DNA from: Rhizaria sp. SCN 62-66
Taxonomy: Eukaryota
Length of the DNA: 35,602 bases
Direction: 5' to 3'
NCBI GenBank assembly: GCA_001724265.1
Contig: MEDY01000344.1
Coordinates: 1-35,602 of the forward strand
Positions 4,766 to 35,602 of the stretch are shown piece by piece; position 1 is the first letter of the stretch, and the number at the start of each line of letters is the position of its first letter. Below the pieces are notes generated by a model. The model saw only the letters and a program-made list of their open reading frames with translations, was not told the DNA's origin and did no database searches. Both the position numbers and the translations under genes were made by a program.

Positions 4766-5382
4766 GTGTCGCAGGTACAGGTATAGCCGTCAATTCTTGC
4801 CTGTTTGTGCTAGTGAATGTCACATATGTTCGACTCGCGTTGCAGCCTTCATATCTATATGTTCAACCCCTTACCCCAATTGTGTGTTTATTATAATGTG
4901 TTTTAGTTTTCATTTATTGATTGTTGGCTTAAATTTTGTTTTTCTGCTTTTTGTGCCGTGTGATCAGTGGAGTCGGAAATTTGTTACGCGTGCCTGGCCA
5001 TGTTTGAGTTATATTAATGATGATATTCTCCGACGATTGAGCAGGATATCCAGTGTTAATTGAATCTGTGTTAAGATGAATGACGTTAACATTGTGTTAG
5101 ATAGTTGTTCATCACTAGCTCATTTTAAAGTTCATACACAAAATGAATATTTTCTTGTCGGAGACGCGACTGCGGCAGCAGGTCGAGGCACAGAGCCACA
5201 GAGGATTTTGAATAGGAGCCAGAACTTCGACGTGCTTTAATTCTGTAGATTGATCGTCAAGTACTGCTAAAACTACATATCTTGATTAAATCAGTACAGG
5301 CTACTAGAAGACAATATTCTAATCCCCTATTCATTTGGATTCTCTTTTTTAAACGCCTGTTTCTTTCTTCTACCTAGACCGC

Positions 5383-7950: not shown

Positions 7951-8194
7951 GCGCGCGAATTGGCTGAGCGAGCATGGGATTGAACGTAACTTCTGGACTG
8001 ATGGGAGGTGCCTGGACGACTGAGGTCGAGTCAGGGCCACATGATGAGACTAGTGAACTTTTTATAAATCTGTTCATTCTGATCGTCAAATAGGATATGC
8101 CATCACAAGCTAATATAAAATACGATTTTTTATTTGATTCCTTAATTATATCTCTTAAAGGCTTTCTGAATACCGAAAATCGAGGTGGGCGCGA

Positions 8195-11100
8195 ATGGCA
8201 TCTTTGTACAGTCGCAAGACTGCCCGCCAACCAAGCTCCCCGCCTCCACCGACCACCGCAGCTCATGTTCCAACGCAACAAGCCCCGCCAGCAGCGCCAA
8301 CTGCTGACTTATGCATCTTCTGCTCTGAAGAGTGGCGCTCACTCGAGACGTACGGTGTGAAGGAGGAGGCCGCGTACCGAGCCTCCCTCGCAGCACCTGC
8401 CCATAGCACCATCGCCTCCACCGAGACGCAGGCAGCGCCCACCGCGGCCACCGCAGTCCCCGCCCTGACTGCAGCTGACGCGGTCCAGAGTCCCGTCTGC
8501 GAGTGCGCGCACTGCTTTTAGCGCCGGTGTGCAGTGGCCACCCCATGGGTTTTCTTCTTCACCCAGGCTCCCGCACTCGCGTTCGCGGACTCCTGGCGCG
8601 ACTGGCTGCTGGGCCGCGCTTTCACACTGCCGGACGGAAACACAGCGCCCGCGCTGGAGCGTGACGGTGGGCACGTTCCCAAACACAGCCCTCTTGCGCT
8701 GCTAGTGAGTGCTGATCCAGCATCAGTGTTGGAGCTCGCATCTGCCCCGAGCCCCGTCGCCTCGTCTTTGCCTGCAACAGCTTCATCAGCCAACACTGCA
8801 GCCTCGAGCGCAAAGACACCGGGTGCCGTCAATGCCGGCGTTTCCGAAGGTGTTGCCGCGCCGGAACCCGCTGCCTTTGGTGCCGCCGCTGTTGACGTCA
8901 AAGCACAGTACCTGTCGACCGCGACCGCAGCCTCAGTTGCGGATGCTGAACGCGCGCGCGCTGCAGCAGCAGCCACGAACCCAAACGCTCCTGCACACGC
9001 TGCGACAACAGCGCCAGCAGAGATTCTGACTGTGCGCCTGGCGTCCGCCGCGACTGCCGCCCCCGCCGCGCTCGGCTCGGCGGCGTGTGTCGTTTACACC
9101 GGCCCCGCTGCTGTGTCGCCGCTAGCCCACCGAGGCCGCGCGCACGACCTCTTCGCGGCCCGGCTGCGCGGCGCGCCCGTGCCGACCGCCGCCGCGCTTG
9201 CCGCGGACGCCGCGACCGACGCCGGGCGCGTGCGAGACGCTGCGGCGCGCTTCCCGCACAGTACTCACACGCACACTCACTCTCGCAAGTGCATTCACGT
9301 TGACGCTGGCACTGCCGAGAGTAAGCAGCGCCGGGCTGCCTGGGTGCTGCGCGCCACTGCTGCTCTCGTCCTGCCGCGAGTGTGGGCGTTTGAGCACGGC
9401 GCCGCGGGGAAGCGCGTTTACGTGGTGGCGTCACTGGGCGCGTTTGTGCGGCGGTTTGTGCATATGAAGCCGGAGCATGCGGCGTATTATGAGGTGGTCC
9501 GTGCGGGGGCGCCGGTGAGGCCGTATCTCGATATCGAGCTGACGTGCGATGATCAAAGTAACACATATATCACCAACAACGACCACGCCCAGCTAGCCAA
9601 CAACAGCGCTGACGGTGGCGACCAGTCAGGAAGCAGTGCTCCCGTCTACGGTAGTTCGGATAATAGCTCGAGCTCCGCTTCTGCCACTGCGGTTGACGCC
9701 CCTTTTGCGTTTCCGCCTCCCGTTGCAGTTGTGCGCGTGCTGTTGCAACGCGTATGGCTGCATCTGCTGCTTTTGCGCGGCGTCACGTTTGCGTTTCAAC
9801 CCGACTGTGACCGCAGCATCTCAGGCACCGATGAGAGTCAAGTTCACAAGAAGCGCCTGCTGTGCAAGACTCACGCGCCGTTTGCTACCCGTGCTGGCGC
9901 AGCTGTCAGCGACTTGGACGCGACGATCCGCGGACGCAAGCTCTCCCGACACGTGGTGTTGTCGCTGCCGGACGACGCGCGCATTGCAGCCGCGTCGCGC
10001 ACGCCGCTTTCTCCAATTGCGAGCCGCGAACAGCAGTCCAAGCAAACCGCGGATACTGCCACTACCGCTGGGACCAAGGGCGCCGCAGTTAACGGGGACT
10101 GGGAGCTCGTCGCGACCACGGCCACTGAGAGCGAAGATGCCGCAGTCAACCGTGACGGTAAACACGCCGCGACCCCTGACCTGTGGGGGGACTTGGGGGA
10201 CTGGATGCGCGCACTCCACAACGCAGTGCGCTTTGAGGCTGAACAAGCGCCACCGCACACAGCACCGTTAGCTGTTGATACAACTGCATGTAACAACTTC
10301 CGATGTGCCGCTCCTAAATCAGGACACGCGGGACGTTGTGGCGGGCTGTGTCTCGACTGGGCCCGACTCTGTGACCGCGCTTGCGACGGTGAGCGCGATA
10401 TGAGCGCTAATGAGCACAAACAGAGTCACTCTGGTGAATTCAGGGCTAGCGACCGCAAGTTCATGTTTAGTGACCGTGAGCGCGGAGGTGCATGGCCTCT
10501 GTGTGCGCTTGGGGGAATCTTGCGCTCACGTGCGCTTCCGTGCCCAGGTCTCGCACCAAGTCAATCGGGGCTTGCAACATGCTCTAGGTCAGCAGATGCA
10601 CAATCAGAGCATCCTTCGCAGTCACGTGTGCCGTGTGTTCGATGTGATAACGACCCGCTGATCTCTCTGCCTTCACTGCACACACCGCCTCGTTCGCAGT
10701 CGAATCGCGCTGACACGGACGCGTTTGATCACTCTTCTGAGTCGACGACTGTGACCCGCCTGTCGACTGCCGTCGCCGCGTTCGCGCGCTCGCTATGTCA
10801 CGCACACCGACACGGCCCCTTGATCTCAGCCACAGCGCTGCGATCTACCTTTGCACCCAACACTGCAGAGGCGAACAATACTCCATACTCAGTCAACTCA
10901 GACTCCCCATTGAACGGTACCACTACGAGTGAGTCGGTGAGCGCGCTCGGCGCGTGGGCGGTCGACACAGGTGTTTACACTCGGAATCGCTGTTTCCGGC
11001 TTCTTGGAGCTGCAAAGCGCGGCCGCGCGGCGCACCCACTCGATGTGGCTCCGGCGTGTGCTGAAGCGACCGCTGATGTCGACGTCGCAGCATCACAGGT

Positions 11101-12679
11101 GCAAGGCGCGTCTGACAACGAGGACTCTGAAAGCATTGCAACCGCTGGCGACTCAAAGCGTGTTCGTATTGCTCAGACCCCCCCAAAAATAGTGTCAGAA
11201 GTAAAGCCGCCTAGATGTGAGTGGTCGCGTGCGTACCCCGGGCTGATGGCTCTGACACCAGCACACGTGTCAGCCTCCGTTGCCGTCACTGGTTTTGACG
11301 TCGATGCGTTTTACGCGTCGCTCGTTTCAGTGGAACCACCGTTGCTGCCGACGCCGCCACCACGCGCAACCGCCAGGGATCGTCTTGCAGCTGCAGAAGC
11401 CAGTGCGACCGCTAGAAAGGCAGCGACGCAGTTGAATGGTGTGGTTACCTTGCCACCAGTGAACAAAACATCATCGACAGTGGCGGCCATGATAAACCCA
11501 ACGCTGCCGCCGCTTCCTCGGCTGCAACTGCTGTGCTCCTTAGCATCTTGCAGCAACGAGCAAGCTTTTTCGACAGGTGCGGCTGCGTTGGCTGCTATTC
11601 CGGTGCGACCGCCCCCGAGTTCATTGGCGTATGTGTTCTGTGGCGATAGTCACACGTATACAGAAAGCGGTGACGGTGCCTCCTTTTTAGTGGATGCTGG
11701 AGCAGCATTGGCGTTGCCGACACTGCTGTTAGGCGATGTCACGAATACCGGTCACTATAGTACTGACGGTTTCTGGTCTCATGCTAGCGCACAGAGCCAT
11801 GACAACCAGAATGATGCCACTCTGGCAACAGACAGCAATTCAAGTTTGAGTGAAACTGGGACGCGCACGACTACGACTACAACAGTATTTTCCAGCACAG
11901 ACGTCGCATCCCCGCGTGTGTGGCCGCTGTATCGCGCAGCATTAGTTGCCGCCGACACTGCACTGTGCCGCGCTCTGCCTGTCGTTGCGAGCCTTGTAGT
12001 CGCACAACAACAGCAACAGCAGCACGCTCGCAGTCCTCTGTCAAACTCGGCTTTTAGCGACACGCACAGTCCATTTGCCGCTGGGGCGCGTTTTTTCCCT
12101 GGCACGTCCCCTGTGCCCGCCGCCGAGGCGATGCTTTTGCGGCACCTGCGCTGGGAGCGCGCGCACCTCACGGGTACGCACACGGGTACTCGCAGCACTC
12201 CCACGAGTTCCGGGTCCGTGACGTTGTCGCAATGGGGCGCCGGCCGTCTCTGCGCCGCCCCCACCACCAACACACCCGCGGCCAGAAAGGCGTCGCCAGC
12301 CTCCGCAGCGCCAGCGCTCAGCGGCGCAACCGCCGCGACCGCGACTGTCGGGTGGGCAGATACTGCGGCGGCAGCGACTGTGGTGGTGCGCAGTGTAGAG
12401 GTGGAGTTTGTCGCGCGCGGCGCTGTGTGCTGGCATAAACGCGCACCACACCGGGCCAACGCCACTGTGCACGCACTGCGGATTGACTTTGCGCCTTTAT
12501 CGCACAGGAGCGGCAACAGTAGTGACAACAGCGGTGCAAGTGCGGTTGCAGCAGTGACCATGGGCTCAGTGACTTCGGTGACGACAGTGCAGCGGTGCTT
12601 TGATCCGGAGTGCAGGGGATTTACGGGGCCAGAAGTGCGACTAGACAACTTTGATTACGACAAGCCCTTGCTTTTGTGA
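8195..12679 (+). CDS. PRIMPOL: PrimPol DNA primase-polymerase (about 1494 aa, heavily expanded), read through in-frame TAG at 8519-8521
   Basis: AEP motifs 'YYEVV..PVRPYLDIEL' (DxE), 'KLSRHVV' (SxH), 'VDTGVYTRNRCFRL', and a C-terminal UL52-type Zn finger 'CWHKRAPHRAN...QRCFDPEC'. ORF 8195-8521 (ATG start) is in frame with 8534-12679 (GTG start). Ends TGA. Confidence 0.88.
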
Positions 12680-13610
12680 TCTCCCTATCCGTCACATCTT
12701 CGCGAGCAGTCTCGGTACCCGACTTACTCGAATCGTCGACGGAGACGACGGACGACGTGCGCCCGTCGCCCCCTCCAATTGCATTAAGCCAATTTCCAGC
12801 ACGCATCCATACGTGCATTTGATACCCGTTCTATCTGTCGTATAATAAATAGAAGTGCCGTTCTAAAACATCCTTTATTGTGTGGTGTTCGTGTATCTAT
12901 GAGACTTAAACATTGGTTCGCGCAGGTGGTGCCCGAAGATCCGGCAGCCAGACTCCAGCTTCGTTTGATGCTATCTCATCTGTACAAATGCAGTCATTGG
13001 TGGGCGCGCAACTTATTATGTGAGGGTGCTATATAAAGACTTGGAGTCGTTGTTTGCAATCTTGATGTTGTCACACAATCACGTCGTTTTCATGGGATTT
13101 ACTTGCGGTCGTTGGTGCCTGCTTCTGCAGCGTGCTCCTTCCAGTCACCAACGAGTCGTTTAAGACTTTTTATCAAGACATCAAGGATTGTAAACGCGTT
13201 AATCCACTATAGCTTGACAGTTCATATATTTTTGTTGTATAGTCAGTCGATTTTATTTACTGAATAACTCGTAAATTGGAATATCCCGTGTCAGTCCGTC
13301 ATGACTGGGAGCAACACAATGGGAGCAACTGAAGCTGAATTTACCTAACCTATTTGAGAGAGATAATCGTCAAAAGACAGATTCGCTACTGTTTTACAAC
13401 ACCAAGCATGTGTGCAACTATAATAATTTATTTGTGCCTTCTAGAATATGAGTTAAAGACTCCAACCAGTTGATATGCACAACCCGATCCACGTGGGTTT
13501 AGATCTCATCCTCCGCTCACCCCTCCACGCCCCATATGTCTTCTCACGACAATATTCTATCTAATAACTCCTATGACACGATTTTCATGTCGCGCATCTT
13601 GCTTTATCAG

Positions 13611-20497: not shown

Positions 20498-21384
20498 GCC
20501 TGACGATGCGGCGTTTGACGTCGCATTGTCCCTGCGTTATAAGCATTGATATAGCATTGTCTTTGCTCACCGTATCATATTGTATCTTTATTCTCATCAT
20601 ATTCTGTGCAAGTAATATTGTTGCTTGTATCCTTCTTCCCTTTGTTTTGTCACTGTCTACTACCTTCCCACCACATATTTAGCTATTCATATCGTGTTTT
20701 TTCGTCTGACTGCGATACGCAACACTTCCGTGCGTCCTTTTTGTGTAAGTGTCTATCCAGAGTCTTATCGTGAGCGTGTACTGTTTATAATCGATTGCTC
20801 ATATTATGTTTTCACCACAAACGCTGTCTGCACTGCAGTCGCATGTGCGTGAGTGTAGCACGCTCGTAGCCTTTAGAGGCGTTGACCTCCTGTCTTGTCA
20901 CCATTCGATCGCTTTCTCTACAAGTGCACACGATGACACGACCGCATGCGAAACACGCTTCATTGCTTTGCGCGGAGTTGCCAGTGTGTTAATGCGCTTG
21001 TTTTAGCGCTCATGTAGAGGCATCCAGAAACAGTGTCACTTTTTGACGCACCTTCTTCGAAACTACCGATATCTAGTGCTTTTTCCGTTCATTATTACCG
21101 TGAGTTTGTCACTCTCCGTTGTCATTCTCCGTAATTCATTTAGTGAATATGTACGAATATCATGTCCACTGTAGACAGATATTGGCTACAGAATCCTACC
21201 ACATCCATCTGAGGTTATATAAAATACACTCAATTGTTGATGAGCGGAGCACATGAAGGAAAATTGGCAATAGGTCTGTATTGTGTGATACGACATGGAA
21301 GATAAACATGTGTAAGAATAGATATTAGATATAGGTAGCAAGTCTAACAGAATCATGACTGAGTAGTGAACGAAACGCGCAGTT

Positions 21385-24300
21385 TTACCACCAGCCGCCC
21401 TCGTACTGCGCAAACGCCTCAGGTAGCGCGGCCGCGTAGAGCGCGCCGAGCGTCGACGCGCTCACCGGCATTTGCGAGAGCGGCAGCGGCGGCAGACTGC
21501 GCTGCGCTCGCACGCCCGCGCGCGTCGGCAGCAGCGCCACCGCCGCGTCCGGCAGCGACAGCGCCAAAGCGAGCGCGAGTCCCGACCAGGGTTGCGCAGC
21601 GCCGCCGATGGCAGCGGCCACGTCCTCGTCGCCGCTGCCGCCGCCGGAGCCGACCGACACGCACCACTCCTGCCGCTGCACCGCCGGCAGCGGCTGCGGC
21701 GCGCGGGCCGGCCGCGGCGGCGCTCCAGAGCCCGCCCCAGCAGCGGCAGCAGCAGTGGCGGCGGAGAGCGCGGCGAGCGCGGCGACCGTGGGGAAAGTCT
21801 GGATGTGCGCTGGAGCAGCGGCAGTGGGCGCGCGGGGAGCCCACAGCGCAGCCAGCACGGCGCGCGCCCACAGCAGCGTGGTCAGCAGCGGCACCAGCCG
21901 TCCCCCGCTCTTCTGGCCGTCGCCGCTGCTGCTGCTGTCGCCGTGCGAGGGGCTGGGCGTTGCGCCGCACACGGCGAGAGCCGCGGCGGCCACGCTGCGG
22001 TTGAGGCCGGACAGCGCCAGCGACGGCGGGGCGGCGGCCAGTGCGCCGCGCGCGATGACCGCGGCCGCCGCTGAGCCGGCAGCAGGCGCGGGCGAAGCCG
22101 CGGTCTCCGCCGCCGCCGCCAGCAGCAGCGCACCGAGCGCTGTAATGACGGGGGCAGAGAGGGTGGGCGATGCAAAGACTGCGCCGATGGCCGTTGGACG
22201 CGCGCGCGAGATCGAAGCAGGCGCGGCCGTAGCGTCTGCGCCGGCGCGAGCGTTGACGTTCACAGTCGTCTCGAAAGCAATGAGCTCGCTGGTGGTCGCC
22301 ACGCACGCCAGCCGACCGCGGCCGATGCTGACGCCGCTGGCGCCGTCCGCAATCGCGGCGGAAACGCGCTCCCGCTCAGCGGCAAGCAGGCGCTCGAGCA
22401 GTGCAGTCGCAGAGTCGGCCGGCGCCGCCACAGCCGCGTCTGCGGGTGAGAGCAGCGCCAGATCAACCGGCCGCCAGCGGCGACACACGCGCACCACAGC
22501 CGTAGGTGCCTGCGCCTGTCGCAGCGAGACGGAGAACGGCGTCCAGCCGCCGCGCCGGACGGTCTGTGCCCCGCCCGCTGGCTCTGCGGTGGGCGACGCG
22601 TCGGAGGCATTGAGCACCCAGTGTCCCGCGCCCGCGCCGCGGTGGAAGCGGCCGACAGCCATGGCGACGGCGGCCGCGCCCGCCGTCGCAGTGGCCGCCG
22701 CGGCGGGGCCCGCGGGCGCGGCGGCGTAGGCTGGGAAGTGCAGCAGCAGCGCTTCAGTCGCGTTGTTCAGCCCGGGCGCGTGGTGCGCTGGGTTGGTGCT
22801 GGGCGCGCCACGCAGCAGCAAGACGGTCAGTGTGGAGGCAGCGTGTGCAGATTGCACTGCGCGGGCCAGGGCACACGCTCCTGCTACCGCGCACGGCTCG
22901 GTCACCGCTGCACTTGCGCCGCTCTCCGTCTCACTCTCAGTCTTGACGACCGTAGGCGCAGTGAGAGTCGCCGCGGCAGCCGCAATCGCCGCCGTCGTGG
23001 CAGCCGCAGCTGCCGTGGTGGAAACCGCGGGCGCCGCGCGGTCGCCGGCCGCTGCCACCACGGTTGACTGCGCGCCGCCTGCGCTCACGGTCGCAACTTC
23101 GCCGCCGAGCGTCAGCGTGCCGCGGGCGCTCGTGGCGCCCGCAGCGGCCGCGGCGGCGGCGGCCGCGGAGGCCGCGGCTGCAGTCGCGCGCAAGTGCGCA
23201 CGCTGCGCCGCCAGAGGGCCCGCGACGGCGCCAAACGCAGGTCCAGACCCGGCAGCCCTGGGCACGGGTAAAGACGCTGGCGCCGGCACTGCGAGACGCG
23301 AAGCGAGCCGGGCCGCGGCGAACGATGCCAGCGCGTGCACTGGGCGCAGGTGGCTTACGGTCACCATCGGAGGCGGCGCCTCCGCCACCACGCCACCGCC
23401 GCCGGACGAGCCCGTGCCTGCAGTGCTATCAAAAGTGTCGACGGCTCTACTGGCGGCGGCGTCACCGGCGGGCACGGCGGCGAGCTCAGCCCACAGCGGC
23501 GTCTGCGGCGACGCGAACTGCGAGCTCAGAGGCGGCAGAGGCCCGCCGTGCATTGCGTGGCCTCCCGCGGCCGCACGCACTGCATCGGCCGCACGCACTG
23601 CATCGGCCGCAGATGCGCTGCTGTTGCAGCTGCTTTCACGGTCCCCGTCCTTGCTGTTAGGACTGTTTGCGCTGCGGTCCGCGCGGTCCGCGCGGACCGA
23701 GTCGGCGCCGAGCCCCGCCCAGTCTGCGCGCGCACCCACGCCGCCGGCCGCTGCGGGCCCCGCGGCGGCGGAGGACAGCGAGAGAAACGGCGCGGAGTAC
23801 GTCAACCCTGCGCTCGCACCGTTGAGCCACACCGTGCGGCGCAGCAGCAGCGGCGTCTCTTCCAGCAGCATTGCGCCCGCGCTCGCGCCAGGGCCTGTCA
23901 CGGCGGGGCTCGCATAGGGGGCGTTGTTGGCGTGCACAGGGTCTGCGGCGCCACCAGCCACCGCAGCGCCGCTGCCGGCAAGACCCGATGACGCGCCGTC
24001 AAGGCCCGGGCACAGGAACGCCTCAGACGCGGCGTCGGCGGCGCGCGCGGCGGCGGCGGCGGTGCCCCCCGCGGAGGCCGCCGCCGCCGACACGGGCGCG
24101 GGAGCGCGCAGCCGGGCCCGCGCTGCCGCGAGCGTGGCCTCGGCCTGCACGACGCCGGCGTGTTGCTCGAGCAGCGCGGTGCGCAGTGCGGTGTGTGCGG
24201 GCGTGCCGGCGACGGCGGCGGCGGGCGTCGCGGTGACGGTGCCGGTCCACGACGCGTGCAGAGCAGCTGAGGCCGCCTGCAGAGCCACCGCCGCGGCGGC

Positions 24301-25494: not shown

Positions 25495-26388
25495 ATGCCC
25501 AGCTTCAAGTCCAAACCGCGCGCACTGTAGGCGCCACGCTCACCGCGCACGCCCCCACGCGACAAGCGTCGCGCCGATGTGCCCTCTGTCACGCTGCACG
25601 ATGCCACTCTTGCTATCGACCAAGTCTTGCCCTCACCAGAAGCCGACTCAGAGGTTGCAGTCGAGGTCATTGCTCCGAGGTCTCGCACTGGCGCAGCTCC
25701 GAAACAACAGCTAATCATGCAACAGAACCGCGCAAACACGCGTAGCTCTAGCAATAGCAAGCTCGTGGCACAGAGCAGCAGAAACGTGGACGCCAGCGAC
25801 AACGACGGAGACAGCGACGACGACCGCGAGAACACGAACGACAGCAGCACGAACGGCACGAGTCGCGGAGACAGAAACGGGCGCAGTCGCACCTTGGTGA
25901 CAAAGCGTGTCGCCCAGCAGCAGCTGCCCTCGGTCACATGCCGCTTGCAAGCCCGCGCCCTAAAGTCCTCTGCATCAGCGCCCGCAGCGGCGGCGGTGAG
26001 TTCAGTCACCACGGCGAAAACGAAGACATCTGTGTCCACGGTCACGCAATGTGCACCCGCATCAGAAACGCAGTGGACGAGCGCGACAGTAGTCACGGTA
26101 ACCTCTGGTGCAAAGACTGAAACCCAGAAGGTCGTGGTGGCAACGGGCCCGCCCGCGCCTGCGAGTGTCGCACGCTACGAGCAGGCTCGCACACTGGTCA
26201 CAGCGACCACAAACGCGATTGGGCAGCACAACAACAACAACAACAACAACGGCTTCACGGCAGAAGGATTCACCGCCTTCCATCTGTCAGGGCGCCCACT
26301 CACGACGCTGCCGCTCCGGCTCCTCTGTGCGCCGTTTATGATGGCGACGGGTAGCGGCGACCAGAACAGTCCGCGGCCAAAGTTGTGA
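25495..26388 (+). CDS. Hypothetical low-complexity protein (about 297 aa); probable ATG at 25495 with in-frame TAG at 25528-25530
   Basis: CATC-ATG CCC AGC TTC AAG...CTG TAG GCG... is in frame with the GTG-started ORF 25579-26388; the GC-rich segment begins near this ATG; ends TGA. Divergent from the 25131 gene. Confidence 0.5.
26228..26250 (+). repeat. (AAC)n microsatellite encoding poly-Asn
   Basis: caacaacaacaacaacaacaac run within the CDS (HNNNNNNNG). Confidence 0.8.
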
Positions 26389-26583: not shown

Positions 26584-27570
26584 ATGGTCTGTTGCTTCGG
26601 CGTCTGCCTGCCTACGTGGCAGCTGATCCCTCTCATCACCCTGGTCGCGTACCAGGTTGTATCTTTTTTCGCGCGTCAGTGCTCCCGCCGCCCGCTCGAG
26701 ATGAAGCCCCTGTCTGCGGCCCGCGCGCGCGCACTTGTGGTGCGCATGCTACAGGCCAAGGCGCCTGGCCTCTTCACCACCCTCGTCGCCAACGCCACAT
26801 CTGCCTCGTCCTCCGCGCTGCCGTCCGTGCCCGCGCTGCACATCACGAGCGCGGACGACTACCGCGCTCTGGTCAAGCTCACCACAATCGACCCTGAGGC
26901 CGTCGTGCTTGTCAAGGTCGGCGCGTATTGGTGCCCGCCGTGCCGCGCAATCGCGCCCGCCGTCGACGCTGTTGGTGTCGCGGTCCACAAGCAGGGGCTC
27001 GCCGCCGTCGCCGCAGCGCTCGCCGCGCTGCCCGCCGGGAGCGTCACCACGGAGCGCTATTCAGACGCCGCGGCGGACGCGTTGCTGCCTATCGTGCCCA
27101 CCCCCGCACTGAAGCCTCCTGCGAAGGATGAGTGCGAGGTCGTGTGCGAGGGTGGCGTCTGCGAGATGCGCAAGAAGAAGCCCGCTGCCACTAGTGCCAC
27201 TACTGCCGACTCTGCCCCTGCTGCCACTGCTGCGTCTGCCTCTGCGTCTGCAGATGCCGATGCTGATGAGAATGAGAACGCGGAGGACGAGGGCCTTCTC
27301 GCAGAGCGCGCGCGCGCTGCCGCTGCCGCCGCCGCCGCCGCCGAGGCTGCCGAGATCTCTGCGCACCTGGCGGCCCCGCTGCCGCGTTTTCTCATCGCGG
27401 ACGTTGACGTGGCGCGCGTGCAGGGCCTCGACTCGCTTGCCTCTGTGCTGCCCACCTTCCTCGTCATCGCCAAGGGAACCACGGTGGACTCGTTCCGCGG
27501 CGCGAACCCGTCCACGCTCGTGTACACCGTACAGAAGCACATGTTTGTTGACTGCCGCTCGGTTGTCTGA
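26584..27570 (+). CDS. Membrane-anchored thioredoxin-domain protein (WCPPC) with a long internal insertion
   Basis: N-terminal TM 'WQLIPLITLVAYQVVSFF'; 'VVLVKVGAYWCPPCRAIAP'; the fold resumes at 'FLIADVD...VLPTFLVIAKG...FRGAN'; ends TGA. Confidence 0.85.
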   Translation: MVCCFGVCLPTWQLIPLITLVAYQVVSFFARQCSRRPLEMKPLSAARARALVVRMLQAKAPGLFTTLVANATSASSSALPSVPALHITSADDYRALVKLTTIDPEAVVLVKVGAYWCPPCRAIAPAVDAVGVAVHKQGLAAVAAALAALPAGSVTTERYSDAAADALLPIVPTPALKPPAKDECEVVCEGGVCEMRKKKPAATSATTADSAPAATAASASASADADADENENAEDEGLLAERARAAAAAAAAAEAAEISAHLAAPLPRFLIADVDVARVQGLDSLASVLPTFLVIAKGTTVDSFRGANPSTLVYTVQKHMFVDCRSVV

Positions 27571-27988
27571 GCGCTGTCCAGCATACAGCCGGACAGTGCA
27601 ATGCAGTTTTGCGTCTCAAAGTGTCCGATTGCAACGCGTTAAAGACTTGCGCGCGAACATGAAATCACAAATTATACTTACGTGGGCCACATGTGACCTC
27701 ATAATGCAATCGTATGTTGAATACATATATTCTTGTTATTTCGTACTTATCCAGCTTCATTGCCACTGTACTTTATTAATTCGTTGAAGGACCGTGAAGA
27801 AGGTCGCACTCAGGCGCTGCTTAGGATCTGCAGCTGTGGTGGCAGCGGCAACGGCCAACGGCTAGATGAGTTGAAATGAAAAACGGCACCCAGCTGTGAG
27901 AACTCGTCAAATAGAGGCACTGGTCAATTTCTAAACGTAAATCCATTATAAATATATAATCCTTTAATAACACTCTGAAAGCACTCAG

Positions 27989-30900
27989 ATGGACTCGATT
28001 ATCACAGCCCTTCTCGAGGTACGTCCACCCACTAACTTCACTCATCCACATCGCCAGCTCTCTTGACTAGTCTGCCAATGAAGACACTGCTAAGACAATC
28101 ATATATCTGGACGACAACTGCATTACATTACTCTATTCCAGGATGGCTTGGTTGAGTCCGCAAACCTGCTCTGCGACCTGCACGGCTCGCATCCGCAGTC
28201 GCACACGTTCGCGCCGCTCAGCGGGACAGTCTGGGGCGATGCGCTCGCGGCCTGGGGCGAGCACGGCCGCGCGCGCCAGCTCTACGCCGCCGTCCCGGCC
28301 ACGCGTTTTGCGGGCCCCGCCGACGTGCAGTTGCTGACCGTGCTGTCGCCGAGCGTCACAGCGCCTGCGCAGTGCCCCAAGGCGGTCGCCGCACTGCGTT
28401 GCGCTGAGACGCACGCCCGCTGCGGCGACGCCACTGCCGCGCTGGCCGCGCTCGCGCCCTTCGCCCCCGCGGCGCTACCTGAGCCCGACGACGCTGCGGC
28501 CCGCGCCGCAGCGGCCCACGGCGGCGCGCTGGCCTATATCACTGCCTGCGGAGGAAGTGCGCTGCCGCTGCGCGGACTGGTGCTACTGGCGCGTCTGCAT
28601 GATGACGCGGAGCCCTCCGCCGCGCCTAGCGCTGCCACTGTAAAGGGCACTGCGGCCGCGGCGTGGGCGCTTGTTACGACGCGCTGCCCGCTCGCGCTTG
28701 AGGCTGCAGTGGCGCTTGTCTGCGCGGGCTACGGTGCGCTGGCCGCACAGCTGCTCGTTCAACTCTACCCTGACAGCAAAGACGTCGCTCTCGCGTCAGT
28801 GGCGGCGGACGGCGCCGCGGTGGCCGGACAGCTGCCATGCGTGCTTGCCGCGATGGCCGCGTACCGCGCGCGGTGCCGCGAGCGCGACGGCAGTGGCGAC
28901 TATGACGACACCGAGAGCATCGATGGCTCCGACAACAACGATGAAGAGGAAGGAGGAGAAGAAGACGGCCACAACGCGAACGCAATGTGCGACGACTCAT
29001 TCGTGCTCCCGCGCCCGCGCGTGCGTCCGCAATCCCGACTGGCCGCTGCGGCCGCCGCTGCAGCCGCGCACGCCCGTTCGACAGCCGAAGGTAGCAGTGG
29101 CGGCACGAGCGGGAAGCTGGGTTTCGTGTCCCCGCTAGCTGCGCACGCAGCATCCTTGCGTTCGCTCACAGGCCGGCTTGCGCACCGCGTCTCGGGCATA
29201 GGCCTGCCCGGAAGCACTGCAGTTGGCGCAAACGCCGCAGCCGCCGGCGGGATGCCTGCGCCCGCGCCTCAGCGCCGCACGCTCACCCGCACCACGGCCT
29301 ACACCGCTGCCGCTGCTGCCGCGGCTTCGGGCCCGTCGCTGGCGCCGACGCCGGCCACAGTGGCGCGGCCCCGGCGCGGCACGGCGGCCAAGCTCTGCTT
29401 TGACACGCCGGCACTCGGCGCAACGCCGGGACCTAGCTCTGCGACTGCGAGTACTGCTGTTGTTGCTGCTGCTGCTGCTACGGGTACGGTGCCACCGGTT
29501 ACGCCGCGGGGCGCCAAGCGCGCGTTCCCTCGTCCCAGCCTTGCCCCGCCCTCCGCGGCCGCAGCGACCGCCTACGGCCACGGCCACGGCTCGTTTTCGC
29601 TGGCGACGCCCGCCGCGCCCGCGCCCGCGACGACTGCGCGCACCCGCGGCGCCGGCGCGCTACCCGCGGCCCCTCAGCGCGCGGGCGCGGCGTCGCGCAC
29701 TTCCCTCACTGCCAGCGCTGCAGGGTTTGCGCCCGTACCGATGGTTGTGGCCACGCCCGCGCCCGCCGCGAGCGCTGCAGTGCCCGCGTCAGCTGTGGGC
29801 ACCGCGCGGGTTGGCACGCGCACCAGCGCTCGCGCACGCAGCTCGCTCGCCCCGGCCGTCACGCCCGCGGCTGGCTTTGCAGGCGCCGGTGCAGCGCCGG
29901 CGACTGCGGCGCGCGGACGCGGCGCCACCGTCGCTGCGGCCACCGCAGTAGGTGCGCGTGCGCCCGCGCCGCCGGTCAAGGCGGGTCGCCGCAGCTCGGC
30001 CGCAACTGCAGGCTCGGCTCGCGCGCCGCTGACTGCGGTCCCGCTTGCGCTTGGTGACAGTGACGACGGCGATAGCGAGGACGACTACAAGCATGATAGC
30101 CGCGTTGTCGGTTTCAGTCTTGACGACACAAACGTCAACGACGAAGATGACGTTGACGATGATGACGATCAAGATGTTAACGCCGAGGCCGATGACAACG
30201 GCGAGGACGAGGAACAGTTTCACGACGCTGAAGTCTGGAACGGCGACGACTCGTTCGCGCTGAATCAGGCCGTCGCCGCCGCTGTGGCTGCCGCAGCTGC
30301 TGCTGCGTCGCCGCTGGGTGCCTCCGCATCCGTTGAGGCCGCTGCAACTGCGGCTGCGCTGGCTGCTGTGCGAACGCAGCGCGTGCGGCGTAACCCCGCT
30401 GACGTGCGTTTTGTGCGCAATCTGAAGGCCACCGGTGCCGCTCTTGCGGAATCACTGAAGCTTGCTGCCGACGCCATTGCGCTCTGGGGAAACAACAATC
30501 TCATTGAGGTACGATAACTGCCGTTTTTTTACAAACTATAAAGAACGCTCCACGATTTATATGTTGATAGAATTTTGCGCACTACGTTGTGAATATCACC
30601 TCAACCATACTTTGTATACTGAATTCTCTTTCGTAGGCATCGACTCACTTGCAGTCGCACCTGGTGGCGCGTCACCCGCGCGCAGTGACAGCGCTACTGT
30701 TACAAGCCACGGTTGAGGCGCAGTGGCGCTACCCATCGCACGTGGCCGCACTGCTGCAGCACGTGCGCACGGTGAGCCCGCTCGTCACAGTCGACATGGA
30801 CATCCTGTTGCAGTGGTTGCTTGAGGCAGGCGACTCCGTGGGGGCGCGCGCGCTCTTCCACAGCATGATTCAGCATGGTAACGCGCGTGCGCGTTGCGGG

Positions 30901-31902
30901 ACCGGCGCCGCGCTACCCGCGCCCGCCGCTGGATCTGCGTCCGGCGCGGCGCCCGCTACGCTCGCCCCGCCGCCGCACGCGCTGCTGCCGCCGAGCTCGG
31001 CCGCGCTCGCCTTCCCGCGCGCCGCGCGCGGCGAGCTGGCCGTCGCCGCCGCGCTCTGGCGGCTCACCGCCCCGCTAACGCTTGCGCTAACGCGCCTTGT
31101 GACTGGCCGGCCCGCGCACAGCGTCGACGCGCTGTTGGCCGCCGTGCCGGCGCCGCCCGCGCGCCGTGCCACGTACGCCGTGCTGCGCGCGCGCGCCGCG
31201 ATGAGTCCCGCCGCGCTCGACGCCGCCACATCTGCAAACTCCGCCAGCGGGGAGCCCCCGCTGAGCGCGAGCGGCGTGCTCGCGCGCGCCGAGCTCGAGG
31301 CCGCGCGGATCGGCGCGCTTGCCGCCGCGATGGGGCCGGCGCGCGACCGGCGACTCGCTGCTGCTGCGGCGGAGGCGGTGTTCACCGCGGCTACAATCGC
31401 CGAAAACGCAGTCAGGACGGGTGAGGTCGCTCCGGGCGCCGCGGCCAACGCGCTGGTGACGGCGCGCGTGGAGCTGCTTAGCGCGGCCAAGATGGCCGTG
31501 TTGACCGCGACCAAGGGCGACGGCAAGAGTCCGTACTTGCGTGCTCTGGCGTGCAAGGCCGTGCTGCTGACCGCTACGGGCCCCGAGCGTGCAACGGTCG
31601 CCAACTCGCTGACAGTCAAGCTGCGCGACATCCTGGGCACGGACCCGGCATGTGGCGAGGCGGCGATGCTGTTGGCGACACTGGCCGTGCGCGCGGGCGG
31701 CGCGGGGGCCGCGACGCTCGTGTCGGCCGCGTGCGAGGCACTGTTGCAGTGCGCGCGCGCGTCGCGGGCGCCGGAGCCGCGCGTTATGGCGGCGCTGGGG
31801 CAGCTTGCTGAGATGGCGCATTCCGCGGGGCCCGACGCTGCGGCGCGGTACTTGCGCTATGCTCGTTCTGAGGAACAAGACGGTGAGGCTGACAATGAGT
31901 AA
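27989..31902 (+). CDS. ANAPC7: Divergent anaphase-promoting complex subunit 7 (APC7)-like TPR protein; exons 27989-28018, 28142-30508, 30637-31902 (about 1220 aa)
   Basis: Spliced N-terminus 'MDSIITALLE|DGLVESANLLCDL', then 'WGDALAAWGEHGRARQLY', 'TRCPLALEAAVAL', 'LVARHPRAVTALL...HVRTVSPLVTVDMDIL', resembling recalled plant/animal APC7 blocks in the same order. Both introns are phase 0. Ends TAA. Confidence 0.7.
28019..28141 (+). other. Spliceosomal intron 1 of the APC7-like gene (123 nt)
   Basis: GAG|GTACGT...CTATTCCAG|GAT; supplies the ATG missing from ORF 28148. Confidence 0.75.
30509..30636 (+). other. Spliceosomal intron 2 of the APC7-like gene (128 nt)
   Basis: GAG|GTACGA...TTTCGTAG|GCA; AT-rich; joins ORF 28148 to ORF 30649 in frame. 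Confidence 0.85.
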
Positions 31903-32164
31903 GTGTGGTGTGATTACGTTTAATGTTACCTAGAACTTTGAAAAATATGTCAATTTTAAAACAAATTAAGTAAATAAAAAATCGAACTTAATCATATTTT
32001 TGTGTGTGTGAAGTTACGGATTTATTCTAAATAGTATTAGTGGCATGAAGCTGATGGGGCAGCAAACTTCACAACTGCGACGGGCACTACGTCAGTCACA
32101 TGGGGCCACTGATAAAATATCGCAAAACGTGCCACAAACAGCGTATAGTAGTATGGGGGGGAGC

Positions 32165-32503
32165 GGACTATAACTCACACGAACAAAAATGAACTATCGC
32201 ATAAGTCATCACAACTCACACGATCATAACTCAGTCACTGAGGACCAAAAATGAACTATCGCATAAGTCATCACAACTCACACGATCATAACTCAGTCAC
32301 TGAGGACGAACTATCGCATAAGTCATCACAACTCACACGATCATAACTCAGTCACTGAGGACTATAACTCACACGAACAAAAATGAACTATCACAACTTA
32401 CACAATCATAACTCAGTCACTGAGGACTATAACTCACACGAACAAAACTCAGTCACTGAGGTCTATAACTCACACGAACATAACTCACACGAACATAACT
32501 CAC
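32165..32503. repeat. Complex tandem repeat array, probably part of the element's terminal repeat
   Basis: Three identical 55-bp units (32191-32245, 32253-32307, 32308-32362), then shuffled sub-modules (TATAACTCACACGAACA); five copies of the palindrome CTCAGT-C-ACTGAG. Confidence 0.95.
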
Positions 32504-32771
32504 CATCCATGCTTTTTAAACCCCTAAATAAAACTCAGTGACTTCATAGGTCAACCCTCACACACTGTCTATCATAAAAAAATTGCCAGCATAATGTTCG
32601 ATGACGTTTACCAACAACGCCCATCCATCGGCATGCTGACAGGCTCTCAACACTCGTTTCGTTAACCCATGTTTACCACTAGTTTGCTGACCATATCCGT
32701 TAGCTGAGCCACTGTTTGCTCGAGCTCTGCGACTCGTTTCTGTAAGCGCTTGTGGGAAGCGTGCAGATGAT

Positions 32772-34520
32772 TTACAGAATGCGACTCTTAACAGGCTCCT
32801 CGTCAAGCGAACCACCACGCTTAGGCTTCAAACCGCCAGCGCTCGTGTTACTACGTGGAATAAACCCACCCTCAGCCTCTGATCCACCCTTAAGCGACCT
32901 GTAAATGTCAACCCCCGACTTCACTGCATTGAAAACAGCAGGCGCTGCCTTAAGAATACCACGACCGAGCCCAGCAAAGAACGAGCCAACACCTGCGCCA
33001 AACCGCTTAGGAGTGAACTTGAGCACATCACCGAGGTCAGACAGGATCTTCTTAGTGCCATCACCGTCAGCAGACACACCACTGACAACGGTAACCAAAC
33101 CGCTAATAGGGTCAACAGTCAGATGCTCTTGGACAACGTTGCACACATAGGGTTCAAAGGTGGCACCAGCAGCAGCGCTAGTGTTAGTGATCGTAAACGA
33201 CACACTGAGAGTAGCATCAACACGACTACCAACGACCAGGTTCTCACCACCGAGACCGATGTCACCATGCTCAAACGATAGGATGCAGCTGCCACCAGCC
33301 ATGTAAGCAGCCAGATTCTGATTGCTACCATTCTTACAACTCAGCTGCCACAGAACCTCAGGCGACATGCTGGTAAAGGCATTCTGACCATTAAACGATA
33401 CAGTCACACTGCTGATTTGTGCATAGTTATCACCTGTAATCATCTGTGCACCATCAGTGGCACCAACACCTGCAACTCGAGGTGCGCAAATGATCAGCTT
33501 ACGAGGAATGACACCGATGTTGACACTATTGACATAGACCTGTGCCGAGGGGGCAGCACCACCACTAGCGGTAAGCGCAATAGCCTCTTGCTTGCGGATT
33601 ACATAGTTGTTCATAGGATACACCTGCACCTGCTTCATCGGTCCTGCACGAATGCTCTCATGCGGTGAGACAACGTTATAGTAGAGAGTAGGCGACTCGG
33701 AAAAGGCAACCTGCATGCCACCGTTGGTAATGGTGTGAGACGCTTCGACGCTGCGAAACTTAATCGTGTCACGCCACTTACCCTGATCAAACGTCAAGGA
33801 GACGTTGACCGCACCACAACCAATTAGACCAGGTGACTTGCCATCAATGCTGAACAGATCGATGGGAAGTGGAAACATAAAGGTGTTGGTGATAGTCGAT
33901 GTATATGCAGCACCGTTAGTTAAAAGTGTAGCAAGAGGAACCACAACATTAGCAGCCGTTCGAACCACCAGACTGCTATCAGCCGAACGACGAGCGCGAC
34001 TATAGCTATAAGCAGTGCCAAGCGCGCTACCAAACGGAGCAAGATCAGCGCTAGTGGTGCTAAGGTCTGCCGACAAGTCAGGCATCGGGTAACTCGATGA
34101 CAGGTTCTCATCACCAACGTCAAACAGGTGTTGACAGATGCGAGCAAGCTGAGACGATGACCGGTCAATAGTAACACCACCAATTGTGATTGCGCAGCGC
34201 GACATTGCACGCAACATAGCCAGACTGCTAAAACACCAGTTGTTCTGCGAGGCATGGGTATTGGCGGTGCCCACTGCTGTAAACGGAATCGTGTAGGTCA
34301 TGGGAATCTTAATCCAAATAGAGGACCCAAGCAGGTTCTCCTTCGAAACTGCGAACGAGAACTCACACCCACTAGTGTTCTGACCGTTCAGCGACTTGGC
34401 CACACGAAAGTCAGTGTTGACCGTGCCAGTAGAAACATCGATGACGCTCTTGCTATGCAGGCCACTAACATCGGGCCACGATGGGGCATAGATAATATTA
34501 GACTTAGTTGCTGTCTCCAT
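32772..34520 (-). CDS. MCP: Virophage major capsid protein (double jelly-roll), about 582 aa from ATG 34520
   Basis: Colinear similarity to the recalled Sputnik MCP: 'NSVNIGVIPRKL' (vs SNVVQLDSIPRKL), 'QISSVTVSFNGQ', 'LWQLSCKNG' (vs LYDFSVQNG), 'DIGL', 'LSVSFTITNT' (vs LQVQMTVTNT), and a Gly-rich basic tail; length typical of virophage MCPs. The upstream extension to 34664 crosses an AT-rich spacer and overlaps the neighbouring gene. Confidence 0.85.
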   Translation of the reverse strand: METATKSNIIYAPSWPDVSGLHSKSVIDVSTGTVNTDFRVAKSLNGQNTSGCEFSFAVSKENLLGSSIWIKIPMTYTIPFTAVGTANTHASQNNWCFSSLAMLRAMSRCAITIGGVTIDRSSSQLARICQHLFDVGDENLSSSYPMPDLSADLSTTSADLAPFGSALGTAYSYSRARRSADSSLVVRTAANVVVPLATLLTNGAAYTSTITNTFMFPLPIDLFSIDGKSPGLIGCGAVNVSLTFDQGKWRDTIKFRSVEASHTITNGGMQVAFSESPTLYYNVVSPHESIRAGPMKQVQVYPMNNYVIRKQEAIALTASGGAAPSAQVYVNSVNIGVIPRKLIICAPRVAGVGATDGAQMITGDNYAQISSVTVSFNGQNAFTSMSPEVLWQLSCKNGSNQNLAAYMAGGSCILSFEHGDIGLGGENLVVGSRVDATLSVSFTITNTSAAAGATFEPYVCNVVQEHLTVDPISGLVTVVSGVSADGDGTKKILSDLGDVLKFTPKRFGAGVGSFFAGLGRGILKAAPAVFNAVKSGVDIYRSLKGGSEAEGGFIPRSNTSAGGLKPKRGGSLDEEPVKSRIL

Positions 34521-34524
34521 TGCT

Positions 34525-34541
34525 AATAAGTTAGACTTATT
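34525..34541 (-). promoter_or_regulatory. Candidate late promoter of the MCP gene: TCTA in AT-rich context, lying in an inverted repeat
   Basis: Minus strand AATAAGT-CTA-ACTTATT; 11 nt separate TCTA (34532-34535) from the ATG, as in CroV/mavirus late promoters. Confidence 0.4.
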
Positions 34542-34574
34542 CATATATGCTATGAGAAAAAAGATGATATAGAA

Positions 34575-34591
34575 ATGTAAACGGTTTACAT
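34575..34591 (-). terminator. Palindrome immediately downstream of the PLA2-gene stop codon; candidate 3'-end or polyadenylation hairpin
   Basis: ATGTAAAC-G-GTTTACAT perfect inverted repeat, 2 nt past the TAA at 34594-34596. Confidence 0.4.
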
Positions 34592-34593
34592 GT

Positions 34594-35601
34594 TTACTTC
34601 TTAGGAGGACGCCCACGCTTCTTTGGCGCAACAACCGGGGTGCCAGTGACAGCAGCTGCTGCATAAGACATCGCGGGTGCTACTGTCACAGAAGGTGCAG
34701 GCCTTGAGAATGCCTTTAAAAAGTCAGTCTCATCATCATAGTCATCCAGCTTGCTATCACTGCCAAAACCAGACAGATGTTCAACTGATGTCTTTCGCTT
34801 ATCAATTTGATCGTTGACCTCCGCAATACGCCTGTTGAGCTCCTTAGTAATTGCTGACTTCTCCTCCTTCCCTAGTTTAGAATAAGGTGCATCTTTGTCG
34901 CGTTTCAGCTTCGTATACTCCTTACGAAAATTTTCAAGCTTATCACGCCGTTCAATGAATCGCTTATTTGTTTCATTAATATCATCGACCACCTCTTTGC
35001 GAAACACGGTTAACACATCTGACTTACTACGAGCTAGCATACTGGCGGCAAACGAGGGATCGCTCTTCAACCTATCCATCACCACTTTAAAACCAGGGTG
35101 TGATCCAATTTCAGCACTCAGATTCGACTTGATATAGTTTTCAAGGTCAGTAAGACCAGTAAACGTTACACGAGGCAAACTGGCAAGGTCAACCTTGTGA
35201 ACAGGATGATTAGCAACACGGCGGCTGCCAACACTCGGTAGCCCTGGCATTACCATCTGAACAGCACCACCGCTAGTGGGGTCATGTAGAGCACGACCAA
35301 CAAGGTTCTTCTCAACCCATGCCTTGCCACTGATAGCCATCTTAATGATGCGACCAGCAAACCCACGCTCAGATGCTGGCAGCTGATTGATGCGCTCGAT
35401 CATCTCCTCGTCAGCCTTGTGGTATGCCTGCATCCGCTCAGCAGGGTCGGTGATGGTTGTTGCAATGCGCTCATATTCAAGGTCATGCAGTCGGCTGATG
35501 TTATCCAGCGCTGAGGTCGGCGGGGTTCCATCGTGCAGCACCTTTGGGTCAGTGCCAGGACCAGTGAAGTTGTGCGACGGCCAGTGAGGACCTTCCTCAG
35601 G
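34594..35601 (-). CDS. Viral PLA2-like (parvovirus VP1u/adintovirus PLA2X-type) protein with coiled-coil and C-terminal AT-hook; 5'-partial
   Basis: Frame is open to the window edge: 'PEEGPHWPSHNFTGPGTDPKVLHDGTPPTSALDNISRLHDLEY...YHKADEEM' gives a GPG Ca-loop, HDxxY and downstream AD; ends 'PKKRGRPPKK' TAA. Confidence 0.8.
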   Translation of the reverse strand, partial: PEEGPHWPSHNFTGPGTDPKVLHDGTPPTSALDNISRLHDLEYERIATTITDPAERMQAYHKADEEMIERINQLPASERGFAGRIIKMAISGKAWVEKNLVGRALHDPTSGGAVQMVMPGLPSVGSRRVANHPVHKVDLASLPRVTFTGLTDLENYIKSNLSAEIGSHPGFKVVMDRLKSDPSFAASMLARSKSDVLTVFRKEVVDDINETNKRFIERRDKLENFRKEYTKLKRDKDAPYSKLGKEEKSAITKELNRRIAEVNDQIDKRKTSVEHLSGFGSDSKLDDYDDETDFLKAFSRPAPSVTVAPAMSYAAAAVTGTPVVAPKKRGRPPKK

Positions 35602-35602
35602 A

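Follow-up and report, generated by a model that had tools for sequence, protein, structure and literature searches.

An Integrated Virophage-Type Element in a GC-Rich Eukaryotic Contig

We analyzed a stretch of 35,602 nt from Rhizaria sp. SCN 62-66 (contig MEDY01000344.1, assembly GCA_001724265.1; hereafter the window), whose last part, positions 32147–35602, very likely represents one end of a virophage-type double-stranded (ds) DNA virus integrated in the nuclear genome of an uncultured, GC-rich wastewater/bioreactor eukaryote, with 244 nt between it and the preceding host gene. Integrated virophages have already been documented in several protists. An initial annotation, made from the sequence of the window, had described a virophage with compact open reading frames (ORFs) at this place; two long minus-strand ORFs are indeed present, but within the window the "compact ORFs" amount to two genes only. 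A metagenome scan returned three related loci: L001 (7121 nt), whose major capsid protein (MCP) gene differs from that of the window at 14 of 1749 nt (99% identical), and L002 and L003, which are 82% and 77% relatives. The element as seen in the window comprises the following features:

32147–32771, no strand: non-coding terminal region of the element, with tandem repeats; shared with L001 up to 32147
32772–34520, minus strand: MCP gene, 582 amino acids (aa), TAA stop; assigned by Pfam, PDB, AlphaFold model, Foldseek, and the ratio of nonsynonymous to synonymous substitution rates (dN/dS)
34521–34593, minus strand: intergenic stretch upstream of the MCP gene, with the motif TTCTATAT at 34567–34574 (minus strand)
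34594–35602, minus strand: gene for a virion protein resembling PLA2X, a phospholipase A2 (PLA2) protein of adintoviruses, 335 of 375 codons, TAA stop; matches PF08398, 5′ end cut by the window end

As a kind, such an element is known from the EMALEs of Cafeteria (PMC8547959); new are the lineage, the PLA2 gene, and a probable reassignment of the codon TAG.

The Capsid Protein Is of the Virophage Kind and Divergent

The MCP matched Pfam family PF22031 (MCP_V20_C, the C-terminal domain of Sputnik V20) with an E-value of 4.1e-10 (39.8 bits, cut-off 27) and, by sequence, the Sputnik V20 capsid in the PDB (3j26_A) with an E-value of 2.7e-5. PF22031 was its only match of this kind, as PF21915 (Sputnik_MCP_1st) was not reached at E ≤ 0.001. 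With the start codon conserved among its relatives, the protein has 582 aa; an upstream ATG would give 590 aa, and in L002 this upstream start is closed by a TAA. A HMMER search with the MCP among 1.84 billion representatives yielded 109 matches at E ≤ 0.001, 12 at ≤ 1e-10, and 3 at ≤ 1e-30, marking the capsid lineage as rare and distant; three of the matched relatives stand at 79, 45, and 38% identity, followed by the next at 27%. The query and 34 of the 109 matches were aligned (35 sequences), and PF22031 was detected in 33 and PF21915 in 23 of these 35 proteins.

An AlphaFold (AF2) model calculated from this alignment reached a pLDDT of 73.3 and a pTM of 0.71, with approximately residues 498–582 being disordered. 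Compared to the PDB by Foldseek, the model matched Sputnik first (E-value 2.4e-27, TM-score 0.74, 17% identity) and then mavirus (E-value 7e-25, 13–14% identity), while the MCPs of giant viruses ranked behind the virophages at about 1e-13. In BFVD, Qinghai Lake virophage came first (E-value 2.9e-30, 18% identity), with an unnamed entry second, Sissi virophage third, an adintovirus capsid fourth, and mavirus fifth. Judged by sequence and predicted fold, the 582-aa ORF encodes a virophage-type MCP with a double jelly-roll, and the structure alignments of the model make it a divergent one, with ≤18% identity to any named virophage MCP. The initial annotation had recognized Sputnik-like motifs in an ORF of about this length, had proposed a divergent lineage, and had suggested a profile comparison with virophage capsids; the ORF was confirmed through PF22031, 3j26, and the Foldseek matches to Sputnik and mavirus, the PF22031 score lay above its cut-off, and the divergence is borne out by the low identities and by the 3 out of 109 representatives at E ≤ 1e-30.

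The MCP gene, which in the window reads towards the terminus of the element, was intact in all four copies (window, L001, L002, and L003), and dN/dS was 0.13–0.14 in comparison to L002 and L003 at a dS of 0.9–1.6. The gene is under purifying selection. No relatives of the MCP were found in scans of IMG/VR viral contigs (with the MCP and with an alignment of the close clade), of GenBank phage records (tblastn), and of prokaryote genome contigs. The disordered C-terminal tail of the MCP holds four GG|X motifs (KGG|S, EGG|F, AGG|L, and RGG|S). In mavirus, the viral cysteine protease cuts the C-terminal domain of the MCP at GG|X or GX|G sites, and 10 of 12 virophage MCPs carry motifs of this type (PMC6048507). 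By analogy to these processing sites, a cysteine protease would be expected in the element because the tail carries such motifs.

A Capsid Module with a Phospholipase A2 Gene

The second ORF of the element matched the parvovirus-type phospholipase A2-like family PF08398 with an E-value of 4.1e-9 (37 bits, cut-off 23.9). The full-length protein of 375 aa was taken from the 99%-identical copy (P0112, L001 1857–2984). Aligned to parvovirus VP1 (9cuz; a weak match, E-value 0.07), its motifs NFTGPG, HDLEY, and YHKADEE face NYLGPF, HDLEY, and YNHADED. By sequence, the protein has the hallmarks of a parvovirus-type PLA2, i.e., the calcium loop YxGxG (with Y replaced by F), the catalytic HDxxY, and a downstream Asp. 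A coiled-coil-like middle part and a basic, DNA-binding-like C-terminal end (...KKRGRPPKK) follow, and in L002 and L003 the upstream PLA2X-like gene ends in ...RGRPAKK directly 5′ of the MCP gene. No copy seen had a broken PLA2 ORF. In L002 (100–230) and L003 (70–160), the sequence for the C-terminal part of this protein additionally contains an expanded tandem Ala-Pro-Val repeat, which is absent from the window copy.

The adintovirus PLA2X likewise combines a PLA2 domain with a basic pX-like C-terminus, and belongs to the virion module, with membrane disruption during entry as its proposed role (PMC8502044, section 3.2). A literature search for virophages and phospholipase A2 revealed no virophage PLA2 in the main-text passages returned; supplementary gene tables could hold such annotations. 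Relatives of the PLA2 protein and of the penton described below were absent from the viral-contig scans, and PLA2 clusters listed for Preplasmiviricota (Atlas) had scores <0.9 and serve as leads only.

Locus L001 extends beyond the part of the element seen in the window. A penton gene at 702–1580 matched PF21507 (Sputnik V18/19) with an E-value of 1.3e-7 (31.3 bits, cut-off 27), and a P-loop ATPase gene at 3–647, whose 5′ end is cut, encodes a Walker A motif (GSGKS) and a Walker B motif (LLCFDD); family matches of the ATPase were weak (AAA_22, E-value 0.0024; terminase phrog_2666, E-value 0.0038), which makes it a candidate only for the FtsK/HerA-type packaging ATPase of virophages. The gene order in L001 is ATPase, penton, PLA2 protein, MCP, and terminal repeats.

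The Element Ends at a Defined Base and Is Very Likely Integrated

The alignment between L001 and the window runs from the MCP stop through the repeats to 32147, and beyond that base the two sequences are unrelated. On the window side lies a host flank of low GC content that has no relation to the flank of L001, where the terminus is followed by a different sequence of 60–70% GC with a 514-aa alanine-rich ORF. As the shared sequence ends at one base next to two different eukaryote-like flanks, we regard this base as the terminus of a mobile element. It coincides exactly with the start coordinate that the initial annotation had chosen for the element. The host side of the junction comprises the following features:

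28094–31902, plus strand: last host gene before the element, two exons (to 30508; from 30637), TAA at 31900–31902
31903–32146, no strand: 244 nt of low-GC host DNA that form the 3′ region of the preceding gene; assigned by the alignment with L001 and by record 13 of run X2

The terminus reads 5′-AGTAGTATGGGG... and is followed at about 32181–32503 by tandem repeats with periods of 62, 55, and 36 nt, each unit of which bears the near-palindrome CTCAGT-C-ACTGAG. Repeat numbers differ between the window and L001 through indels within the repeats. The repeat family has no further copy elsewhere in the window, and scans of viral contigs with the repeat unit and of prokaryote genome contigs with the terminus pattern gave no further copies. 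Presumably, the repeat-rich region 32147–32771 is one terminal (inverted) repeat. Summed contig depth over the terminal repeats exceeded that of the flanks 10- to 70-fold in three runs, with 2158 in X1 compared to about 30–280 over host bins, a depth in keeping with units in tandem, with further copies, and probably with a second end. Runs X1 and X2 each contain one contig in which 136 nt right behind the stop codon of the MCP gene (window 32635–32772) are swapped for 40 other letters; this replacement is a structural variant among element copies.

To these comparisons we added public contigs from four runs mapped on the window, with a minimum of 31 letters set for crossing a junction. The junction stretch was found in wastewater, bioreactor, and activated-sludge metagenomes, with entries that contain at least half of its words in three studies, one of which may be the source. 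A contig of X1 (record 2) covers 27354–32173 with no differences and crosses the junction 32146/32147 by 27 letters. A contig from another study (X2, record 13) matches 31376–32146 with one difference, and its other 1246 letters match nothing in 27000–35602; most simply, this contig represents an allele without the element. The empty-site allele that the initial annotation had suggested to look for thus has a candidate that departs exactly at 32146, but the empty site is not proven. Integration itself, which had likewise been claimed, agrees with all three comparisons, since the L001 alignment stops at 32147 in front of another flank, the X1 contig crosses, and the X2 contig ceases to match at 32146. 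In X1, the element contigs (records 4–7) had depths of 25–35 compared to 31.7 for the host contig, which is a rough sign of about one element copy per host genome and not of an excess of free virus. Furthermore, contigs of X1 and X4 contain a joint from 30993 to 32147, one side of which measures 27 letters and lies below the reliability bar; it may be the flank of another insertion.

These observations bear on the possibility that a free virophage genome was misjoined to a host contig during assembly. The metagenomic short-read context and the end of the window inside the element would allow for such a chimera, and the terminal repeats, given their very high depth, are a place prone to misjoining. 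However, two contigs with different eukaryote-like flanks end their shared sequence at the identical base, the X1 contig passes from 32146 to 32147 without differences, the contig of the other study stops matching at precisely this position, and contigs identical to the element in the window occur at about host depth in X1. We therefore consider a chimeric assembly very unlikely.

Contigs from a polyA metatranscriptome (X6) cover parts of the MCP and PLA2 genes (32844–33137, 34660–35042, and 35254–35602). With 8–28 differences to the window, they are variant copies.

A TCTA-Containing Motif Upstream of Capsid Module Genes

The motif TTCTATAT, which lies upstream of the MCP gene, is an 8-mer with a TCTA core in an AT-rich context. 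L001 contains exactly two copies, each within about 50 nt 5′ of a start codon (PLA2 and MCP; two of three genes), whereas 0.08 copies are expected by chance and none of 200 shuffles reached two. The upstream region of the L001 penton gene lacks the motif. TCTA in AT-rich context is the core of the late promoter of mavirus and CroV (PMC8547959). Since the motif was picked after looking, is absent upstream of the penton gene, and has lost its TCTA in L003, we treat it as a lead only. An equal spacing between TTCTATAT and the start codons was initially considered and dropped, as L002 shows that the upstream ATG of the MCP is not the conserved start.

TAG Is Probably a Sense Codon

The initial annotation had also raised the possibility of a variant genetic code in the host. 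The host ORF at 5353–7950 (plus strand) contains two in-frame TAGs (5716 and 6511) and ends with TGA. Its N-terminal part encodes a TBCC domain (PF07986, E-value 1.5e-31) that covers profile positions 4–120 of 120 across the first TAG, and its C-terminal part encodes an ELMO domain (E-value 1.7e-18). In alignments to XRP2 (2bx6) and TBCC (2yuh), TAG 5716 faces a conserved Glu, which is Glu138 of XRP2 by alignment count, and the FR motif nearby retains its Arg. In RP2, the variant E138G is associated with disease (PMC3124502). Behind TAG 6511 follow 479 codons without any ATG, the ELMO domain included, so that the ELMO domain cannot be a separate ATG-initiated gene. The ORF as a whole fuses TBCC/RP2-like and ELMO domains, two kinds of activators of Arf-like GTPases.

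Further in-frame TAGs are found in GC-rich, coding-like context. In ORF 8159–12679, an ATG lies 108 codons before TAG 8519 (8519–8521) and the next ATG 315 codons after it; the fourth candidate, at 25528–25530, has an ATG upstream and the next ATG 63 codons downstream. We left the TAGs at 13500 and 19343, both located in AT-rich leaders, out of the count. None of 11 host ORFs in the window ends with TAG, nor does the host ORF of L001. Element genes ended with TAA in six of six cases (four L001 genes and the MCPs of L002 and L003), and the L001 ATPase contains a single in-frame TAG (240–242) between Walker A and Walker B. This TAG could be either a nonsense mutation or a use of the host's TAG sense codon.

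On the other hand, TAG is the easiest nonsense mutation in a GC3-rich genome, and at this GC content, chance alone produces long open frames. Neither a suppressor tRNA nor any other tRNA gene was found in the window and in L001–L003, and codon usage gave too weak a score for classifying the stops. Taken together, the position of a TAG inside the TBCC domain at a conserved Glu, the ELMO stretch free of ATG, and the lack of genes ending with TAG lend support to the suggested variant code, which is probably real: from these sequence patterns, TAG is quite probably a sense codon in the host, and we lean towards the same for the virophage, with less confidence. The amino acid inserted would possibly be Glu, as suggested by one aligned site. 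An extended interpretation, according to which host and virophage share a code with TAG as sense codon (possibly Glu) and TAA and TGA as stops, the PLA2 gene encodes an entry protein undescribed for virophages, and a helper giant virus works under the same code, may be right or wrong with about equal probability. Should the reassignment of TAG be true, host, virophage, and giant virus would all work within one altered code, which would provide a natural test of whether code changes constrain viruses or shield against them.

Nature and Activity of the Element

The in-frame TAG of the L001 ATPase also matters for the question of whether the element is a truncated or decaying virophage fragment unable to form virus. 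Under the standard code, this TAG would be a nonsense mutation, and only a single end of the element is seen. In contrast, the MCP and PLA2 ORFs are intact in all copies seen (MCP in four of four, under the constraint described above), copies at two loci differ by <1%, pointing to recent movement, and the TAG is better explained by the code of the host. A dead remnant is therefore quite improbable.

A second alternative concerns the dependence on a giant virus. Despite its virophage-type capsid, the element could move and replicate on its own, independently of a giant virus, as a polinton-like or Maverick-like virus or transposon. Polinton termini begin with 5′-AG, and the terminus of the element does so as well. 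No data tie the element to a giant virus, the adintovirus capsid ranks fourth in BFVD, and within the literature searched a PLA2 virion gene has so far been described in polintons and adintoviruses (PMC8502044) and not in virophages. However, MCP and penton match Sputnik-specific Pfam families, and the best structural matches are virophages. Polintons/Mavericks are marked by a protein-primed DNA polymerase B (pPolB), an rve integrase, terminal inverted repeats, and a 6-bp target-site duplication; neither of the two genes was found in the 5.4 kb of element seen, which represent one end only and could not have shown them. We rate the autonomous element as unlikely.

For a provirophage, we infer the following course. 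The element would be mobile and belong to a young, active family of provirophages; if its missing part is intact, it would form T=27-like double jelly-roll capsids. The C-terminal scaffolding tail of the MCP would be trimmed at the GG|X sites by the expected cysteine protease, and virions would contain the PLA2 protein, which would open the endosomal or phagosomal membrane during entry in the manner of parvoviruses and in line with the role suggested for the adintovirus PLA2X. From membership in the virophage capsid lineage alone, the element may be assumed to depend on a giant virus and to protect its host, and reactivation and an associated giant virus may be assumed by analogy.

Several points weigh against an integrated, functional provirophage. 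Only 3.46 kb of an element that is expected to be much longer lie in the window, and the designation "intact provirophage" rests on one complete and one cut gene, from which it cannot be judged. Penton and ATPase were contributed by L001 alone and not by the window locus, and the ATPase combines a weak family signal with an ORF that contains an in-frame TAG. The element sequence obtained (5.4 kb seen) contained no cysteine protease, integrase/recombinase, replication gene, second terminus, or target-site duplication. At the junction, the 27 letters by which the X1 contig extends into the element fall short of the 31-letter bar, X1 may be the sample of origin, and the X2 contig is no proof of an empty site. 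The X6 contigs may reflect expression or DNA carry-over. Lastly, the TCTA of the 8-mer is lost in L003, and neither a giant-virus sequence nor a confirmed promoter was found.

Comparison to Known Systems

With Sputnik and the lake virophages, the element shares the double jelly-roll MCP, for which Sputnik and the Qinghai Lake virophage were the top Foldseek matches (E-values 2.4e-27 and 2.9e-30), the Sputnik-type penton of the sister copy L001, and the proximity of MCP and penton genes. In contrast to these virophages, MCP identity amounts to only 17–18%, the window MCP lies below the threshold of PF21915, a PLA2 gene stands between penton and MCP genes (L001), and the element has been inserted into a eukaryotic genome.

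Like mavirus and the EMALEs of Cafeteria burkhardae (PMC8547959), the element is a virophage element of lower GC content in a protist genome of about 70% GC, with insertions that differ between loci or alleles, and the flexible MCP tail with GG|X motifs resembles that of mavirus (PMC6048507). Unlike in these systems, the MCP is only 13–14% identical to that of mavirus, which ranks below Sputnik and the Qinghai Lake virophage and is thus not the closest relative. Furthermore, no mavirus-like gene was present in the sequence obtained, the habitat is wastewater or bioreactor compared to marine, and the genetic code of the host is probably non-standard.

The third comparison concerns the PLA2X of adintoviruses and polintons (PMC8502044), which, like the protein described here, joins a parvovirus-like PLA2 domain to a basic C-terminal part and is encoded in the virion module of a mid-size dsDNA virus. 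Here, by contrast, the gene belongs to a virophage-type capsid module, the first residue of the calcium loop is F and not Y, and the only sign of a possible likeness to adenovirus pX in the C-terminal part is the conserved ...RGRPxKK end. The presence of a PLA2 gene in this capsid module links virophage entry to a mechanism proposed for adintoviruses and polintons.

Composition of the Window and Host Genes

In 1-kb windows, GC content was 0.69 at 31001–32000 and 0.457–0.508 in every window within 32001–35500, compared to 0.54–0.77 in most of the host part, with the drop beginning at about 31900. The abrupt switch in GC content noted in the initial annotation is therefore real, and the fall is sustained through to the window end. 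Host intergenic stretches (4501–5500, 12501–13500, and 20501–21500) also dip to a GC content of about 0.46, so that the sustained 3.5-kb run is the sole distinctive feature with regard to GC.

Host genes in the window include those for an anoctamin (PF04547, E-value 1.2e-71), an ELMO-domain protein, and a thioredoxin-domain protein. A search for relatives of the anoctamin yielded no protein other than that of the window, and the anoctamin clusters listed in the Atlas were generic, so that neither pointed to a particular host. The gene preceding the element had been described as APC7-like, which we could not reproduce, as neither of its exons matched a Pfam family at E ≤ 0.001 or a PDB sequence below E 0.2. 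Its two exon ORFs are connected in frame by an AT-rich GT-AG intron of 128 nt (30509–30636, with GT at 30509 and AG at 30636), which is the one case that fits the earlier statement of intron-containing host genes. A single RNA contig lies over this intron (30472–30733; run X6, record 28), and it is unspliced.

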